From assembly GCF_011045215.1 (NCBI RefSeq), contig NZ_CP049201.1: DNA of 64,000 nt. One strand, 5' to 3'. Shown one piece after another: positions 17,453-29,644 of this stretch (positions are counted from its first letter, which is position 1; every line of letters begins with the position of its first letter). Below the pieces are notes generated by a model. That model worked only from the letters and a program-made list of their open reading frames with translations, had not been told where the DNA came from and did no database searches. Source of the DNA: Escherichia coli (lineage in GTDB: Bacteria > Pseudomonadota > Gammaproteobacteria > Enterobacterales > Enterobacteriaceae). The position numbers were made by a program, and so were the translations under genes.

Positions 17453-18679
17453 ATGGGAATTAACGAAATCATCATGTACATCATGATGTTCTTTATGCTG
17501 ATAGCTGCCGTAGACAGGATCCTGTCGCAGTTCGGCGGTTCTGCTCGTTTCCTCGGTAAGTTCGGTAAAAGTATCGAAGGATCAGGCGGTCAGTTCGAAG
17601 AAGGCTTTATGGCAATGGGCGCACTGGGCCTGGCGATGGTCGGTATGACCGCGCTGGCACCGGTACTGGCTCACGTACTCGGGCCGGTAATTATCCCGGT
17701 TTACGAAATGCTCGGCGCAAACCCGTCAATGTTCGCCGGAACGCTGCTGGCGTGCGATATGGGCGGCTTCTTCCTCGCCAAAGAGCTGGCGGGCGGCGAC
17801 GTAGCAGCGTGGCTATACTCTGGGTTAATTCTCGGGTCGATGATGGGGCCAACGATTGTGTTTTCCATTCCGGTGGCGCTCGGCATTATCGAACCTTCTG
17901 ACCGTCGTTATCTGGCGCTCGGCGTGCTGGCGGGCATTGTGACCATTCCGATTGGTTGTATCGCTGGTGGTCTGGTAGCTATGTACTCCGGTGTGCAGAT
18001 CAACGGCCAGCCGGTGGAATTCACTTTCGCCCTGATCCTGATGAACATGATCCCGGTGATCATTGTTGCGATTCTGGTGGCGCTGGGGCTGAAATTCATC
18101 CCGGAAAAAATGATCAACGGCTTCCAGATCTTCGCCAAATTCCTCGTTGCATTGATCACCCTCGGTCTTGCCGCTGCGGTAGTGAAATTCCTGCTTGGCT
18201 GGGAACTGATCCCCGGTCTGGATCCTATCTTTATGGCCCCTGGCGATAAACCCGGTGAGGTGATGCGCGCCATTGAAGTTATCGGTTCTATCTCCTGCGT
18301 TCTGTTAGGGGCGTATCCGATGGTGCTGCTGCTGACCCGCTGGTTTGAAAAACCGCTGATGAGCGTCGGTAAAGTGCTGAATATGAACAACATCGCGGCA
18401 GCCGGCATGGTGGCAACGCTTGCCAACAACATCCCGATGTTCGGCATGATGAAGCAGATGGATACCCGCGGCAAAGTCATCAACTGCGCCTTCGCCGTTT
18501 CTGCTGCTTTCGCCCTGGGCGACCACTTAGGGTTCGCCGCTGCCAACATGAATGCCATGATCTTCCCGATGATTGTCGGCAAGTTGATCGGCGGCGTAAC
18601 GGCGATTGGCGTGGCGATGATGCTGGTGCCAAAAGACGACGCGACCGCAGCTAAAACCGAAGCGGAGGCACAATCGTGA
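17453..18679 (+). CDS. eutH: Ethanolamine permease EutH
   Basis: 408-aa highly hydrophobic multi-pass membrane ORF in eut operon. Confidence 0.9.
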   Translation: MGINEIIMYIMMFFMLIAAVDRILSQFGGSARFLGKFGKSIEGSGGQFEEGFMAMGALGLAMVGMTALAPVLAHVLGPVIIPVYEMLGANPSMFAGTLLACDMGGFFLAKELAGGDVAAWLYSGLILGSMMGPTIVFSIPVALGIIEPSDRRYLALGVLAGIVTIPIGCIAGGLVAMYSGVQINGQPVEFTFALILMNMIPVIIVAILVALGLKFIPEKMINGFQIFAKFLVALITLGLAAAVVKFLLGWELIPGLDPIFMAPGDKPGEVMRAIEVIGSISCVLLGAYPMVLLLTRWFEKPLMSVGKVLNMNNIAAAGMVATLANNIPMFGMMKQMDTRGKVINCAFAVSAAFALGDHLGFAAANMNAMIFPMIVGKLIGGVTAIGVAMMLVPKDDATAAKTEAEAQS

Positions 18680-20079
18680 ACACTCGCCAGCTACTGAGCG
18701 TCGGTATCGATATCGGCACTACCACCACCCAGGTGATTTTCTCCCACCTGGAACTGGTTAACCGTGCGGCGGTGTCGCAGGTGCCGCGCTACGAATTCAT
18801 CAAACGCGAAATTAGCTGGCAAAGCCCGGTGTTCTTTACCCCTGTCGATAAACAGGGTGATTTAAAAGAAGCGGAACTGAAATCGCTGATTTTAGAGCAA
18901 TATCAGGCTGCGGGCATTGCACCGGAAAGCGTTGATTCTGGTGCCATCATCATCACCGGTGAAAGCGCGAAAACCCGCAATGCTCGCCCGGCGGTGATGG
19001 CGCTCTCTCAGTCGCTGGGCGATTTTGTCGTTGCCAGCGCCGGGCCGCACCTCGAATCCGTGATCGCCGGTCACGGAGCCGGGGCACAAACCCTTTCTGA
19101 ACAACGGCTGTGTCGGGTACTGAATATCGACATCGGCGGTGGCACCGCGAACTACGCCCTGTTCGATGCCGGAAAAATCAGCGGCACTGCCTGCCTCAAC
19201 GTCGGTGGTCGCCTGCTGGAAACCGACAGCCAGGGGCGCGTGGTTTACGCTCATAAACCGGGGCAGATGATTGTGGATGAGTGCTTCGGCGCAGGCACCG
19301 ACGCCCGTTCGCTGACCGGCGCGCAGCTGGTGCAGGTTACCCGGCGGATGGCAGAGCTGATTGTCGAAGTGATTGACGGAACGCTCTCGCCGCTCGCGCA
19401 GGCATTGATGCAAACCGGTTTGCTGCCCGCAGGTGTTACGCCCGAAATCATTACGCTTTCTGGCGGCGTGGGCGAATGTTATCGCCACCAGCCCGCCGAC
19501 CCGTTCTGTTTTGCCGATATTGGCCCGCTTCTGGCAACGGCGCTGCATGACCATCCGCGCCTGCGTGAGATGAACGTGCAGTTTCCGGCGCAAACCGTGC
19601 GTGCCACGGTGATTGGCGCGGGGGCACATACCCTTTCGCTCTCTGGCAGCACAATCTGGCTTGAGGGCGTACAACTGCCGCTGCGCAATTTGCCGGTGGC
19701 GATCCCGATTGATGAAACGGATCTGGTGAGTGCCTGGCAACAGGCGCTGATTCAACTGGATCTTGATCCCAAAACTGACGCGTACGTGCTGGCGCTTCCC
19801 GCCTCGCTGCCTGTGCGTTACGCCGCGGTACTGACGGTCATCAACGCGTTGGTCGATTTCGTCGCGCGTTTTCCGAATCCGCATCCCCTGCTGGTGGTGG
19901 CCGGGCAGGACTTTGGTAAAGCTCTGGGCATGTTGTTGCGCCCACAGCTACAACAACTCCCGTTGGCAGTCATTGACGAAGTGATTGTCCGCGCGGGGGA
20001 CTATATCGACATTGGTACGCCTCTTTTTGGCGGATCGGTTGTGCCGGTGACGGTGAAATCACTCGCATTTCCTTCCTGA
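18676..20079 (+). CDS. eutA: Ethanolamine ammonia-lyase reactivase EutA
   Basis: 467-aa ORF, 4-nt overlap with eutH; eut operon synteny; followed by the inserted element. Confidence 0.9.
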   Translation: MNTRQLLSVGIDIGTTTTQVIFSHLELVNRAAVSQVPRYEFIKREISWQSPVFFTPVDKQGDLKEAELKSLILEQYQAAGIAPESVDSGAIIITGESAKTRNARPAVMALSQSLGDFVVASAGPHLESVIAGHGAGAQTLSEQRLCRVLNIDIGGGTANYALFDAGKISGTACLNVGGRLLETDSQGRVVYAHKPGQMIVDECFGAGTDARSLTGAQLVQVTRRMAELIVEVIDGTLSPLAQALMQTGLLPAGVTPEIITLSGGVGECYRHQPADPFCFADIGPLLATALHDHPRLREMNVQFPAQTVRATVIGAGAHTLSLSGSTIWLEGVQLPLRNLPVAIPIDETDLVSAWQQALIQLDLDPKTDAYVLALPASLPVRYAAVLTVINALVDFVARFPNPHPLLVVAGQDFGKALGMLLRPQLQQLPLAVIDEVIVRAGDYIDIGTPLFGGSVVPVTVKSLAFPS

Positions 20080-23450: not shown

Positions 23451-23525
23451 AATTACCCCCGAATTGATAGCGAATTGATAGCGAATTACCCCGAATTACC
23501 CCCGAATTACCCCCGAATCACCATC
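23451..23525. repeat. Tandem array of about 6.5 copies of an 11-bp unit (AATTACCCC(C)G x4 and AATTGATAGCG x2)
   Basis: Directly visible: aattaccccc g aattgatagc g aattgatagc g aattacccc g aattaccccc g aattaccccc g aatcaccatc, exactly filling the gap between the 93-aa gene stop and the 87-aa gene start. Confidence 0.85.
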
Positions 23526-24277: not shown

Positions 24278-24721
24278 TTATTCCCCCATGTGGAAATAGT
24301 CATCTAAGCGGCGATTAAACTCGTCGCTGCCATCGAAATATTCACGGATACTTTTATTGACCAGATCATCACCGTCGAAATACTGGCGCGTGAAATCGTC
24401 CAATTCCCCATCGAAGTATTGACGTGTGAAATCGTCTAATTCCCCTTCAAAATATTGACGCGCATCAGGCGCTCTGTTTGGCGCTGTAGCAATCTCAGAT
24501 TGATTGCCCTGTAACTTATCGACGTTTGCTAAATACACGCCCAGTGAGCTGTTTGTTCCCATTACCGCAAGCATTTTCCGGCGATCTGCCATGTTCGGCG
24601 CGAGCGATGATAATTGAGCTTTAATTTTGTCCACTTCCTGATTAACAATACGGTCAATCAGTGGTTGATTCGTGCGAATAATTTCCTGTGCCAACTGGCG
24701 AATATATTCTTTGCGTGTCAT
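24278..24721 (-). CDS. Hypothetical protein with C-terminal tandem RQYF(D/E)GELDDFT repeats (147 aa)
   Basis: ORF with GGAGAT RBS; encoded by about 3.5 tandem 36-bp DNA repeats near 24330-24465. Confidence 0.55.
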   Translation of the reverse strand: MTRKEYIRQLAQEIIRTNQPLIDRIVNQEVDKIKAQLSSLAPNMADRRKMLAVMGTNSSLGVYLANVDKLQGNQSEIATAPNRAPDARQYFEGELDDFTRQYFDGELDDFTRQYFDGDDLVNKSIREYFDGSDEFNRRLDDYFHMGE

Positions 24722-24739: not shown

Positions 24740-25123
24740 TCATTTCTGTAAAAAACCCATACCGTGGCCCAGGCGATTTGAAATTTTCCCGGCAAGCATC
24801 CGGCGAATATGTTTTTCGTTGATGATGTCGTGAGTGACCGGATCTTCACCTTTCATACATTCCGGCATCTGGTCAAACAATACGGAAGCGCCTTCATCAA
24901 TAATCTCAGTTAAGACTGCTGGCAGCATATTAATGATGCGTTCTGCTTCGTCGTTCATTGCTTTATCGAACGCTTTTTTATCCATTGCTTCGGCGGATGG
25001 TTTGTAATTGTCGCCAGTCAGGTTAAGGTAAGTGTTGTTTGGGTGATACATGGCATTCACTCCTTTTACTTTGATTGTTGCGATTTCTTTGTTTTTGTTA
25101 ATTGTGGTGCCTTTGACTTTCAT
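24740..25123 (-). CDS. Hypothetical protein (127 aa)
   Basis: ATG overlaps stop of HNH gene (ATGA), suggesting translational coupling; no recognised domain. Confidence 0.5.
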   Translation of the reverse strand: MKVKGTTINKNKEIATIKVKGVNAMYHPNNTYLNLTGDNYKPSAEAMDKKAFDKAMNDEAERIINMLPAVLTEIIDEGASVLFDQMPECMKGEDPVTHDIINEKHIRRMLAGKISNRLGHGMGFLQK

Positions 25124-25539
25124 GCTGCTTCTTCCTTCAATAATTGTGGCAATTTGCCTGTTAGTTCGATTTCTTCATTAATAGATGCAAGTAACTGTCT
25201 CAGTTTGCGATGTAATAGCTGGTGACGCTCTCTCGGCATTTTTACCAGGTTGCTTAAGCGGTTATTCTGCGGATCGTAGTCCCGGTGATGGATATCATAT
25301 TTTCGCTCATCGTAAACACCGTAGCACCATAACCAGGCAGCCTTTTCTATTGTCATGCAGGTACGTTTTCCGTTGCTTAAACAAATGGTTATACTCAGGT
25401 GACCGCGATGTTTTTCGTTTAAGCTGCCTTTAATTACCTGGCCTGTGCTGCGGTTGTGAAATAAACCAGTTTCAGGGTCGTAGTGATATTTCTGTCGTAA
25501 TATATCAACTGATAACCGTAGTCTTGTAAGATTGTCCAT
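25120..25539 (-). CDS. HNH homing-type endonuclease (139 aa)
   Basis: Motif YDIHHRDYDPQNNRLSNLVKMPRERHQ (HH...N...N...H) typical of phage HNH nucleases; GAGGTAG RBS. Confidence 0.7.
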   Translation of the reverse strand: MDNLTRLRLSVDILRQKYHYDPETGLFHNRSTGQVIKGSLNEKHRGHLSITICLSNGKRTCMTIEKAAWLWCYGVYDERKYDIHHRDYDPQNNRLSNLVKMPRERHQLLHRKLRQLLASINEEIELTGKLPQLLKEEAA

Positions 25540-25571
25540 GATGTTCTACCTCAATGTGATTGCTGTGTTAA

Positions 25572-25757
25572 TTATCTTTCTTCTTGTGGCCTATTCAGCC
25601 AGGCCTCGATCTCGCTACGCCAGAATAATAAACGACAATTTCGCGGCGTAAATGGTTGGGGTATTGTCTTATCTTTTAATAGCCATCTTCGAATCGTTCT
25701 TGTTGATACCCCCGCTATTAATGCGAAAGCTCGCAGATCTATAACTTCATCTCTCAT
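25572..25757 (-). CDS. AlpA-like HTH regulator (61 aa from ATG with GAGGT RBS)
   Basis: Sequence LIAGVSTRTIRRWLLKDKTIPQPF...WRSEIEAWL matches AlpA/Xis-type HTH pattern; track ORF start 25862 is a TTG extension. Confidence 0.55.
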   Translation of the reverse strand: MRDEVIDLRAFALIAGVSTRTIRRWLLKDKTIPQPFTPRNCRLLFWRSEIEAWLNRPQEER

Positions 25758-26537
25758 GTTCTTACCTCGATTAAAAAGGACCGCCCCCAGGGAAAGAAGA
25801 AAGAGGAAAGAGGAAAGAGGAAAAACTTCCTGGAGGCGGGTAATTCGGATTCCTTGAATCAATATCCCATGTGATACTTAATATTATAAAGGGCGGCGGG
25901 CTATGTCGCTATTTTTGCCATAGTGTGACACCATTAATTTATTAACAAAAAGTGCTATTTATTAAATCTTTTTTCGGCAGGTGCAAGAAAAATAATTGCG
26001 ACACGGTAGGGTAGCGGGCGATAATAATCATGTAAGGAGTAGCCACCTTACGCCTCCAAATGTGATCGATAAAAATAATAGTCTCAATTCTTTCTCCCGC
26101 TTCTCGGCGGTTTTTTTGCCTGCAATCACACATCAAAAAAACACATCGAATTGATATGCCTTTAAAACGCAATATAACGCATTTTGACGGCCTTAATTTT
26201 TGCCTATCCACTCGGAAGCGTAAGCCTGTTTTGATTCGTCTGGCGTGGAATGGTGCGGCGGTAATATCAGATCTCAGCGTTCTGTGTGGTGGGATGGAAT
26301 AGCCTGGCAGGATCTGCGTGTGATTTCATTCATCCAACCTTGGATGAATGGTCCGATCTGGTCAGTAGTCCGGCACAAATAAAAAGCGCCTGCGGGCGTA
26401 GCAGACGCTTTGTGTACAGGCTTATCAGTACGGGATGTGCACGAATGATTATACCACCCTCAGAAAAACGTTTGCTTTTGCACTTAAACGGATAAGTGGT
26501 ATTTCTTGGTCTTCATTGGTTTTAGCTCACCATAGGC

Positions 26538-26765
26538 TCATTTAGGTGCGCCCCTGTCGATAATTCGGTACATGTTCTCGGTATATCTCCCGTTAATCAC
26601 CGTTCTGGTAACAACAATCACACCGTTTTCCTCCAGAAAGGCAATGGCCCGCTTCACTCCCTGGCGGCTTACACCGGATAGCTGCGCCAGCCTGTCAATG
26701 GAGATGTTGTATTTGTCCGGCTGGCTTGTCAGGATCTGGAATACCGCTCGTGCTGTTTTCGTCAT
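26538..26765 (-). CDS. Small winged-helix DNA-binding protein (75 aa), candidate regulator
   Basis: Sequence ISIDRLAQLSGVSRQGVKRAIAFLEENGVIV has HTH character; divergent from the plus-strand cassette; RBS weak. Confidence 0.45.
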   Translation of the reverse strand: MTKTARAVFQILTSQPDKYNISIDRLAQLSGVSRQGVKRAIAFLEENGVIVVTRTVINGRYTENMYRIIDRGAPK

Positions 26766-27037
26766 GGCAAAAACTCATTGAAATTGGATACCCTTAGAAC
26801 GCTCTCAAACGCTCCGTAATGCGATGAGAATTTTACCTAAGCAAGTGTAGCTCTTTATTAGTTTTATGATGCCGTAGGCCGATAGAAGGTGCGCTCTCTG
26901 AAGTTTCATTGTCTATCAGTGGTGGGTAATGCTGCCTTTACTATTGGCGTCAAGAAAATCACTGGTGTAGATTGGGCGAATAGTTTACTATTCAAACAAG
27001 GCACAATGGCCTTAGCGGATTGATGTCAGGAGATACC

Positions 27038-28438: not shown

Positions 28439-29644
28439 TCACGGTTCAAGTGGATTACCGTCACCAGCCAATATTGAATCAATAGCGTCGGCGTAATCCT
28501 GCATCATTGCTCGCCGTTGCTTCAGGTAGGCCGCCTGGTTATAAACGCCGCGCACACCTTTCGGGACGTGGGCCAATTGGATTTCGATCCAGTCTGGTGA
28601 GTATCTGCCAGACTCATTAAGCGCCGTTGAAAAGGTGGTCCGCCAGCCATGACCAGTGGCAATGGATTTATAGCCGATCCTCTCAAGCGCCTTCAGTATC
28701 GCGCTGGCTGAAAGTGGCTTATCCATGAATCGACCAGGGAAGACGAAAGCACTGTATCCGCTCCTTGTAAACTGGTCCTGTAATAGCTCCACCGCCTGCC
28801 GTGATAGCGGGACCACATGCGGGCGGCGGGCCTTCATGACTTCAGCGGGCAATGTGATTGTTGCGTCCTCCAGGTTTATCCATTCCCAACGGCACAAACG
28901 CAGTTCTGCGGTCCTTAATGCCGTTAATATAAGCAAACGTATTGCCGTCTGAATCTGGACGCTCCCGGCCCTCTCAAGGGCTTTGTAGAAGGCCGGAATT
29001 TCACTAATCGGTATCCACGCGTTGTGACCAGGTCGGCGGGCCTTCAGTGCCGTATCAAGATCTGCAACCGGATTCCTCGTTACCAGTTCGGTGATAACGG
29101 CAAACTTGAAGATCTCACCGATGCGCTGGCGTAGCTTGCGGGCCTGCTCCGGTGCGGTACGTTCTTTCTTCTGGAGTAATGCCAGCACGTCACGGGCGGT
29201 TATATCGACAATCGACCGCTTGCCAAGTACCGGATAGACGTCTTTTTCTAGGGCCGATCTGACCTGTTTTGCATAGGATTCCGACCACCCTCCAACCCTA
29301 GTAGCAAACCAGTCTTCCGCCACCTTCTTAAATCCTGCCGCCATGTTGAGCGCATCAATGGCTTTTTCCTTGCGGGCTTGTTCCACTGGGTTAATTCCAT
29401 TGGCAATAAGGGATCTGCTCTCCGTGGCGCGCCTGCGTGCTTCTTTGAGTGTGATTAGCGGGTAAACACCAATAGCCTGCAAAAACTCTCGTTTATTCAA
29501 CCAATACCTGAATCGCCAGTATTTCGAACCGTTGGGATGCACCAGCAAAAACAGCCCCGGCGTCAGTGAATCGGTGAGTTTATAGGGCTTGTCCTGCGGC
29601 TGTGCGGCGTCTATGGCCTTTGCTGTGAGTGGTGTCTTGCTCAA
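28439..29644 (-). CDS. intZ: Tyrosine-type site-specific integrase (prophage integrase)
   Basis: 401-aa ORF with phage integrase features (N-terminal arm-binding domain, C-terminal catalytic region with ...HGWRTT...); sits at the element end beside eutB as intZ does in E. coli K-12; start appears to be TTG. Confidence 0.8.
   Translation of the reverse strand: MSKTPLTAKAIDAAQPQDKPYKLTDSLTPGLFLLVHPNGSKYWRFRYWLNKREFLQAIGVYPLITLKEARRRATESRSLIANGINPVEQARKEKAIDALNMAAGFKKVAEDWFATRVGGWSESYAKQVRSALEKDVYPVLGKRSIVDITARDVLALLQKKERTAPEQARKLRQRIGEIFKFAVITELVTRNPVADLDTALKARRPGHNAWIPISEIPAFYKALERAGSVQIQTAIRLLILTALRTAELRLCRWEWINLEDATITLPAEVMKARRPHVVPLSRQAVELLQDQFTRSGYSAFVFPGRFMDKPLSASAILKALERIGYKSIATGHGWRTTFSTALNESGRYSPDWIEIQLAHVPKGVRGVYNQAAYLKQRRAMMQDYADAIDSILAGDGNPLEP

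Follow-up and report, generated by a model that had tools for sequence, protein, structure and literature searches.

In Pseudomonas aeruginosa, AlpA binds in the stretch that separates the -35 from the -10 element, loads onto RNA polymerase and enables it to read past an intrinsic terminator of the leader (PMC7969949). The AlpA protein of EcCICFT073, a phage-inducible chromosomal island (PICI) of Escherichia coli, stimulates its own expression, and its induction by helper phage proceeds via an unknown factor (PMC6092414). The wider question is how Gram-negative phage satellites silence an AlpA-type master activator and how helper phages release it. Contingency loci undergo slipped-strand phase variation in promoters (e.g. 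the TA repeats of Haemophilus hif and the poly-C/poly-G tracts of Neisseria), and the P4 CI RNA (seqA/seqC) and P1/P7 C4 RNA act in antisense-RNA immunity. Here, a 64,000-nucleotide stretch of E. coli DNA (assembly GCF_011045215.1, contig NZ_CP049201.1), referred to at its full length as the window, was analysed around a purine tract with a heptamer repeat that lies just upstream of an alpA-like gene and a gene for an HNH endonuclease. The tract occupies the loop of a hairpin conserved in the alpA-sense RNA, and its number of heptamers differs between strains. We give an even chance to the reading that it is the slippage-prone, length-tolerant C/U loop of a terminator or attenuator in the alpA-like/HNH leader, perhaps bypassed by the AlpA-like protein. 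The features concerned, all in alpA sense, are listed from promoter to HNH gene with the evidence for each.

25883..25888, minus strand: TATAAT, predicted -10 box for the alpA-like gene (kept as TAtAAT/TAAAAT across the alignment)
25829..25839, minus strand: 5' arm of the hairpin, RNA CCGCCUCCAGG (z -3.35; 98% of cells paired, 3 compensatory pairs, U·G in 8/9)
25792..25828, minus strand: hairpin loop (37 nt here; 22-37 nt in relatives with the same arms)
25789..25825, minus strand (alpA sense): the tract, a 37-nt purine run on the plus strand (longest purine/pyrimidine run in the window; 0/300 simulations reach 36 nt or more)
25802..25822, minus strand: three perfect heptamers, AGAGGAA on the plus strand and in CCUCUUU register in the RNA (sequence, tandem-repeat search, strain comparison)
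25781..25791, minus strand: 3' arm of the hairpin, RNA CCUGGGGGCGG (pairing alignment and folding)
25769..25780, minus strand: U-rich tail 3' of the stem, UCCUUUUUAAUC (U5 run at 25777-25773; CUUUU(U) kept in every island type)
25765..25768, minus strand: Shine-Dalgarno GAGG of the alpA-like gene, within the conserved AUCGAGGU (leader alignment)
25572..25757, minus strand: alpA-like gene, 61 amino acids, excisionase/AlpA-type winged helix (phrog_66, E=1.5e-7)
25120..25539, minus strand: HNH endonuclease gene (PF13392, E=5e-7; phrog_99)

Purines run uninterrupted for 37 nt on the plus strand (25789-25825), one more than the 36-nt tract described in an earlier note on this DNA, which covered 25790-25825 (gggaaagaagaaagaggaaagaggaaagaggaaaaa). 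The three perfect tandem AGAGGAA units reported there are present (25802-25808, 25809-25815 and 25816-25822), and Tandem Repeats Finder (TRF) returned 25791-25823 as a repeat of period 7 with 4.7 copies and 92% matches. No purine or pyrimidine run in the 64-kb window is longer, the runner-up measuring 20 nt. In none of 300 sequences simulated by a first-order Markov model did the longest run reach 36 nt (mean 15.6 nt, maximum 22 nt), and the expectation for a run of tract length among independent and identically distributed (i.i.d.) bases is ~1e-6; the tract is not a chance occurrence. The minus strand encodes the alpA-like gene (ATG 25757-25755), which puts the tract 33-68 nt upstream of that gene's start codon; the earlier note had rightly set it just upstream of the alpA-like/HNH pair, at a distance of 35-70 bp that needs this correction. 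Its further placement in the promoter region does not hold. The tract is downstream of the conserved -10 box (25888-25883), inside the 5' leader, and no plausible promoter with the tract in its spacer was found on either strand. In mRNA sense it is a polypyrimidine, C/U-rich and almost free of G (UUUUUCCUCUUUCCUCUUUCCUCUUUCUUCUUUCCC).

The tract is flanked by 11-bp inverted repeats, with RNA arms at 25839-25829 and 25791-25781, and the loop between them (25828-25792) is 92% pyrimidine with many YC dinucleotides. The RNA then reads, in order, 11-bp GC-rich stem, UCCUUUUU, GAGG and AUG, with the stem 12 nt before the ribosome-binding site (RBS). UCCUUUUU has 6 U in its first 8 nt, as in the U-rich tract that follows the stem of an intrinsic terminator, and the stem stability of -20.8 to -21.8 kcal/mol agrees with the stable GC-rich stem of such terminators. 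On the plus strand no T-run follows the stem. Folded alone, the minus-strand hairpin has -21.5 kcal/mol and z = -3.35 (z = -3.84 for the 2-copy allele described below, z = -4.75 for the homologue in the related contig L001), and the plus-strand fold is weaker (-20.0 kcal/mol, with an internal mismatch). The z-score of the whole 121-nt region was +0.72 and uninformative, the significance being that of the hairpin alone.

Near-identical copies numbered 0 in complete E. coli genomes, and distant relatives of ~72-79% identity were used for comparison; contigs (given L numbers here) were also located via the HNH product and neighbouring proteins. Scans with the arm pattern returned 0 hits in viral contigs, 19 in species genomes (chance matches in GC-rich organisms) and 66 in metagenomes, 5 of which were real relatives; the phage collection gave no match. 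When nine distinct homologues are aligned, 98% of the cells are paired, and three pairs carry compensatory double changes (in L091/L092, CACGG/CCGUG replaces CCAGG/CCUGG). The observed pairing values were attained by 1 of 500 shuffles, and pairing fell to 52-68% when the partner was slid by one column. One stem position is U·G in 8 of the 9 homologues, the plus-strand equivalent of which is an A·C mismatch. This wobble fits the minus-strand RNA only, and the structure is therefore read as an RNA feature of the alpA-sense transcript, in which the hairpin is, on these comparative grounds, conserved. Related islands have unrelated stems (GCGGUGAGG/CCUCACCGC, GGCGGCUGUG/CACGCCGCC, GCGGCGGUUG/CAGCCGCCGC and AAGCGGC/GCCGCUU) in a constant layout of UUCAGG-type motif, GC stem, large loop of 14-25 nt made up mostly of pyrimidines, CUUUU(U), GAGG and AUG. 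Conservation among relatives is higher in the regulatory DNA than in the adjoining coding sequences (HNH proteins 40-43% identical).

Searches of Rfam 15 over 25740-25880 gave no family at gathering scores; with E-values up to 10 the sole overlap was rliI (25798-25915, plus strand; E=1.5, 12.9 bits versus a gathering score of 45). Two candidates were rejected. A leader peptide starting at the conserved CACAUGGG AUG would have an open reading frame (ORF) of 3 codons in the window, with a frame that varies among relatives and no Shine-Dalgarno sequence (SD), and an 8-nt identity between the hairpin 5' arm and a neighbouring candidate small RNA (CGCCUCCA) occurs in the window lineage only and was judged coincidental. 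Farther upstream, a canonical terminator-like hairpin with U-run (26383-26411, minus strand) directly follows a gene for a 75-amino-acid helix-turn-helix (HTH) protein; a weak Rfam match to OrzO-P at the same positions (E=0.46, far below the gathering score) is probably due to chance. As the HTH gene has this terminator-like hairpin of its own, the alpA leader hairpin is not that gene's terminator.

The predicted -10 box lies 44 nt upstream of the hairpin; it reads TATAAT in the window, and most relatives have TAAAAT there. A promoter scan of the L001 homologue returned ATGTCA-17-TAAAAT. The -35 of the window is poor (3/6 positions match), which suggests dependence on an activator, and transcription would start near 25876 to give a leader of ~118 nt. 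The spacer between the two elements (25889-25905, minus strand; GCCCGCCGCCC) co-varies with the allele of the AlpA-like protein, even across different hairpin types (L001, L028, L094 and L100 compared). MKAITLE alleles occur with the spacer ATGTCAAnAnGAAAAAT..GG and MNDSELMT alleles with TGTGAAnCAGGGAnAT..GG, in differing hairpin types (L028 versus L094), and the unique MRDEVIDL allele of the window occurs with a unique GC-rich spacer. The covariation may reflect an allele-specific binding element, a circumstantial argument given that linkage alone could produce the pattern.

The ORF of the predicted AlpA-like protein is, judged from sequence, a real gene under clear purifying selection: the protein matches phrog_66 ('excisionase and transcriptional regulator'), and most codons that differ among alleles do so silently (22 synonymous, 8 nonsynonymous). 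RefSeq relatives carry no annotation for this ORF (58-61 amino acids; window 25572-25757 on the minus strand, L001 4038-4214, and L097), and the gene-call collection does not contain it. The HNH gene starts 32 nt downstream of it, and the two genes are probably in one operon.

For a GC hairpin with a U-run that separates the promoter of a silent mobile-element operon from its first gene, the simplest reading is a leader terminator or attenuator. Acting in this way, as an intrinsic terminator or an attenuator, the hairpin would keep the alpA-like/HNH operon nearly silent, and an antiterminating activator would let RNA polymerase past it. The likeliest activator would be the AlpA-like protein itself, which would load at the allele-specific promoter spacer in the manner of P. 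aeruginosa AlpA, and a helper-phage factor may or may not assist it. The heptamer expansion would sit in a length-tolerant loop and at most fine-tune leakiness. Leader hairpin, U-run and allele-matched spacer together offer a concrete, testable model for the silencing and release of an AlpA-type activator, namely a terminator bypassed by AlpA-type antitermination.

Several observations weigh against a leader attenuator of this kind. Intrinsic terminators typically have short loops of 3-8 nt, and those of the leader hairpins are far above this (37 nt here, 14-37 nt in relatives); a terminator consensus scan allowing loops of 3-8 nt did not report the leader hairpin. Across leader types the U-run begins 1-4 nt past the stem, and the pyrimidine richness of the loops persists, which a plain terminator model leaves unexplained. 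The transcription start, and any RNA 3' end at the U-run, are inferred rather than mapped. The kinship of the protein to AlpA is also weak: Pfam HTH_17 scored 20.3 bits, under the 27-bit cutoff, and K-12 AlpA gave 29% identity with a pairwise E of 0.045. The Pfam search returned no PF05930 match, and lambda Xis matched weakly (E=0.08). Finally, the alpA gene of K-12 CP4-57 has no long leader and no such hairpin, and the EcCICFT073 alpA leader (L135 7400-7525, E. coli CFT073) has no hairpin with U-run. The latter leader is instead ~75 nt, C/A-rich and G-poor, and rut-like in look.

Contigs with two heptamers were found via an identical HNH protein (GCA_036176565.1, GCA_002971875.1, GCA_040249095.1 and GCA_902843985.1). 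This HNH allele is listed in 33 index blocks; the four assemblies were compared, plus L108 (Logan assembly SRR11014969), which was reached via a neighbouring protein. Against window positions 25101-26800 the four assemblies had zero mismatches and exactly two differences, namely 2 heptamers instead of 3 (the missing unit aligned to 25817-25823) and T8 versus T7 in the terminator T-run of the neighbouring small RNA. The 2-unit allele is one and the same in all four. Over 3.1 kb L108 matches the window at 100% identity, with 3 units as there. Unit numbers are thus 3 in the window and L108, 2 in L097-L099 and L109-L111, and 1 in L083, and the invariance across strains that the earlier note had named as speaking against a switch was not seen. 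Between identical arms the loops measure 22, 27, 28, 30, 32 and 37 nt, and in the loops of distant relatives with these arms short C/U motifs have repeatedly been gained and lost. The loop sequences, as RNA, are as follows.

L083: AAG UUUU CCUCUUU CUUCUUUC, 22 nt
L097: AAG UUUUU (CCUCUUU)x2 CUUCUUUC, 30 nt
Window: AAG UUUUU (CCUCUUU)x3 CUUCUUUC, 37 nt
L028 and L071: one CCUCUUU unit after CCUUUU, 28 nt
L133: one CCUCUUU unit after CCUUUU, 30 nt
L127: ACUUUCUUUUUCAU CCUCUUU UUUCUUUCUUC, 32 nt
L001 type: AAAUUCAUUAUUUCUCUUUCUUCUUUG, 27 nt

The predicted free energy of the hairpin is -20.8, -21.1 and -21.5 kcal/mol with 3, 2 and 1 units, a change of at most 0.7 kcal/mol. The length change lies within the loop and therefore cannot alter promoter geometry (-35/-10 spacing) or reading frame, and loop closure at 37 nt is expected to be still fast relative to transcription. 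The repeat is probably a recent slipped-strand expansion, from 1 to 2 to 3 units, and nearly neutral; copy number may have a modest quantitative effect on leakiness. Two versus three units in otherwise identical DNA make a clean natural case of slippage and provide ready alleles for loop-length tuning. Should loop length not tune the attenuator, the tract would be an ordinary microsatellite in a tolerant loop. The regulatory cassette around the repeat is of more interest than the repeat itself.

Beyond the tract, the 1.7-kb regulatory and HNH block (25101-26800) is base-identical, slippage-type indels aside, to that of L109-L111, whose eut flanks are ~96% identical to those of the window; the contrast between identical module and diverged flanks therefore points to recent horizontal transfer between diverged hosts, with only slippage-type changes since.

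The C/U loop could instead act in cis on translation, its CCUC motifs serving as an anti-Shine-Dalgarno (in a pseudoknot with GAGG/AUG) or as a pyrimidine enhancer bound by S1, with extra heptamers strengthening the effect. In keeping with this, the predicted duplex between loop and RBS goes from -13.7 kcal/mol with 2 units to -16.4 with 3, and about half of the loop variants contain CCUC or CCUCC. Loop:RBS pairing was, however, no better than that of composition-matched shuffles in 11/11 leader types (16-98% of shuffles at least equal), and CCUC is absent from several types (L001, L004, L100 and L102), which leaves such control improbable.

We regard it as unlikely that heptamer gain and loss turn alpA/HNH expression on and off by slipped-strand phase variation, the switch that the earlier note had proposed. 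The slippage that it supposed does occur, as in contingency loci, with 2 versus 3 copies in sequences otherwise identical over 1.7 kb and a relative with 1; the tract is thus a tandem repeat with copy-number polymorphism in close relatives. The repeat is not placed where length sets expression, however, being downstream of the -10 box and within a hairpin loop, neither between -35 and -10 nor in a coding frame. That loop already spans 22-37 nt among functional-looking relatives, and the predicted change in stability stays within 0.7 kcal/mol. The array is also short (1-3 units) and not hypervariable, all four 2-copy assemblies having the same allele, and the sole other difference in 1.7 kb is a homopolymer indel, as neutral slippage predicts before substitutions arise.

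A loop of 92% pyrimidine with many YC dinucleotides could also load Rho (as a rut-like site) or another RNA-binding protein (Hfq, cold-shock), which would cause or relieve premature termination with a binding strength set by repeat number; the alpA leader of EcCICFT073, of unrelated sequence, likewise has ~75 nt that are C-rich and G-poor. This too appears improbable: a loop of 14-37 nt is shorter than typical rut sites and is closed by a very stable stem, and loops of the L094/L100 type are merely 14-17 nt.

With its 5' hairpin, exposed C/U loop, GC stem and U-tail, the terminated leader resembles Hfq-type small RNAs, and it might act in trans with the loop as an anti-SD seed for purine-rich RBSs, e.g. 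those of helper-phage or island genes. In addition, the 10-mer CGAAUUACCC (25838-25847), which lies next to the hairpin on its 5' side, shows complementarity to three repeats arranged in tandem upstream of the island's TerS-like gene; equivalently, the 10-mer CGAATTACCC of those repeats recurs just 5' of the hairpin (25838-25847, minus strand) in complementary sense. No specific target of the loop was found in the window beyond generic purine-rich sites, however, and the terS complementarity is absent from the L116/L118 islands, which have the same terS repeats, and is not conserved in other leader types; we hold a role in trans to be quite improbable.

An element that acts on the promoter as DNA, be it a triplex (H-DNA), a cruciform, or a purine tract or inverted repeat bound by protein, is very improbable for all that a 37-bp homopurine/homopyrimidine run is flanked by 11-bp inverted repeats. 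The only mirror repeat (GAAAGAAGAAAG, 12 nt) stops short of the AGAGGAA repeats and the array is direct, not mirror, which speaks against the unusual DNA structure suggested in the earlier note. The conserved U·G (A·C on the plus strand), the compensatory changes, the stronger fold on the minus strand (-21.5 versus -20.0 kcal/mol) and an arm spacing of 22-37 bp incompatible with the fixed helical phasing of a dimeric binder speak likewise against a protein-binding site formed by the inverted arms.

Upstream of the alpA-like promoter, the neighbouring transcript already mentioned was placed as follows.

26032..26118, plus strand: candidate small RNA of ~87 nt, divergent from the alpA-like gene (promoter, terminator, conservation, compensatory pairs)

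It has a promoter TTGCGA-18-GATAAT (25996-26025) and a terminator (26097-26110) with a T7 run, was found in every island type examined, and folds into a 5' hairpin and a terminator hairpin, with compensatory changes; it has no Rfam match. The terminator T-run (26111-26118, plus strand) is length-polymorphic, with T7 in the window, T8 in the 2-copy strains and T8/T9 in other relatives. The conserved single-stranded seed, CCUC(C)AAAUGUGAU, is complementary to AAUCACAUUGAGG (25549-25561, minus strand), which lies just upstream of the HNH start codon and overlaps the HNH RBS. Predicted seed:HNH-RBS duplexes lie between -15 and -19.5 kcal/mol; in four island types, no more than 0.4% of shuffled targets equalled them. 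The same AAUCACAUU motif occurs in the RBS of the next gene in L028 and L083. The candidate small RNA belongs to the same conserved regulatory cassette as the leader hairpin and is not part of the tract; in its apparent logic it resembles the P4 and P1 antisense immunity RNAs.

A more far-reaching proposal, which we advance as speculative and rather unlikely in its entirety, is that the hairpin with its expandable C/U loop is part of an undescribed cassette of the eutB-site satellite-like islands. The cassette would comprise an allele-specific promoter, a leader attenuator with a large loop, an AlpA-like antiterminator that regulates itself and a divergently transcribed small RNA aimed at the HNH RBS, and heptamer number would be a heritable rheostat. 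Through effects on the kinetics of hairpin folding, on anti-SD pairing or on the loading of proteins onto the loop, the rheostat would fix the basal level of read-through and with it the island's induction threshold.

The island itself spans ~9.6 kb between eutA (18676-20079) and eutB (29782-), at the CPZ-55 integrase site. It is a small, satellite-like mobile island that carries an IntZ-type integrase (28439-29644), a YafO-like toxin pair and a small HTH protein together with the alpA-like gene, the HNH gene, a truncated Sf6-type TerS-like gene and an Ant-like gene. K-12 CPZ-55 has only the integrase and the island ends in common with it, and a literature search for CPZ-55 small RNAs or eutB/intZ satellites returned nothing relevant. 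Such islands are highly mosaic, with the same HTH, HNH or 147-amino-acid proteins beside many different neighbours. The 147-amino-acid protein is widespread (560 index blocks), and its minus-strand ORF in the window (24278-24721) contains a 36-bp tandem repeat (24375-24462; 2.4 copies, 82% matches) that is apparently in frame and gives repeated RQYF(E/D)GELDDFT segments. Directly upstream of the TerS-like gene (ATG 23450, minus strand), positions 23460-23522 hold tandem GGGGTAATTCG x3 and CTATCAATTCG x2; L116 and L118 have 2+1 copies, and other TerS alleles have different allele-specific direct repeats.

Compared with the P4 CI and P1/P7 C4 RNAs, the candidate small RNA is divergently transcribed rather than processed from a leader, has no Rfam C4 match and does not involve the tract; it shares with them a conserved single-stranded seed complementary to the RBS of a downstream operon gene, here HNH. 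The tract shares with contingency loci a short tandem repeat near a promoter with copy number differing between close strains, and differs from them in its 1-3 units, its position in a transcribed hairpin loop rather than in a promoter spacer or reading frame, and a negligible predicted structural effect. Compared with the EcCICFT073 PICI, the island of the window is without primase/replicase and capsid genes, and the EcCICFT073 leader is without hairpin and U-run; both have an integrase followed by a small AlpA-type regulator heading the island operon, the window island has packaging-related genes (HNH, TerS-like), and EcCICFT073 AlpA activates its own promoter (PMC6092414). Set beside the antitermination systems P. 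aeruginosa AlpA/ABE/tB and lambda Q/tR', the hairpin here precedes the alpA-like gene itself, an autoregulatory layout, its loop is 14-37 nt and not 3-8 nt, the protein is distantly AlpA-like, and the island system is known from sequence alone. Like those systems, the locus combines a GC-rich hairpin and U-run in the leader between promoter and regulated genes with, in this case, a small AlpA-like winged-helix gene, and the promoter spacer differs between islands, if perhaps by linkage, with the regulator allele, as expected of a -35/-10 element such as that bound by P. aeruginosa AlpA (PMC7969949).

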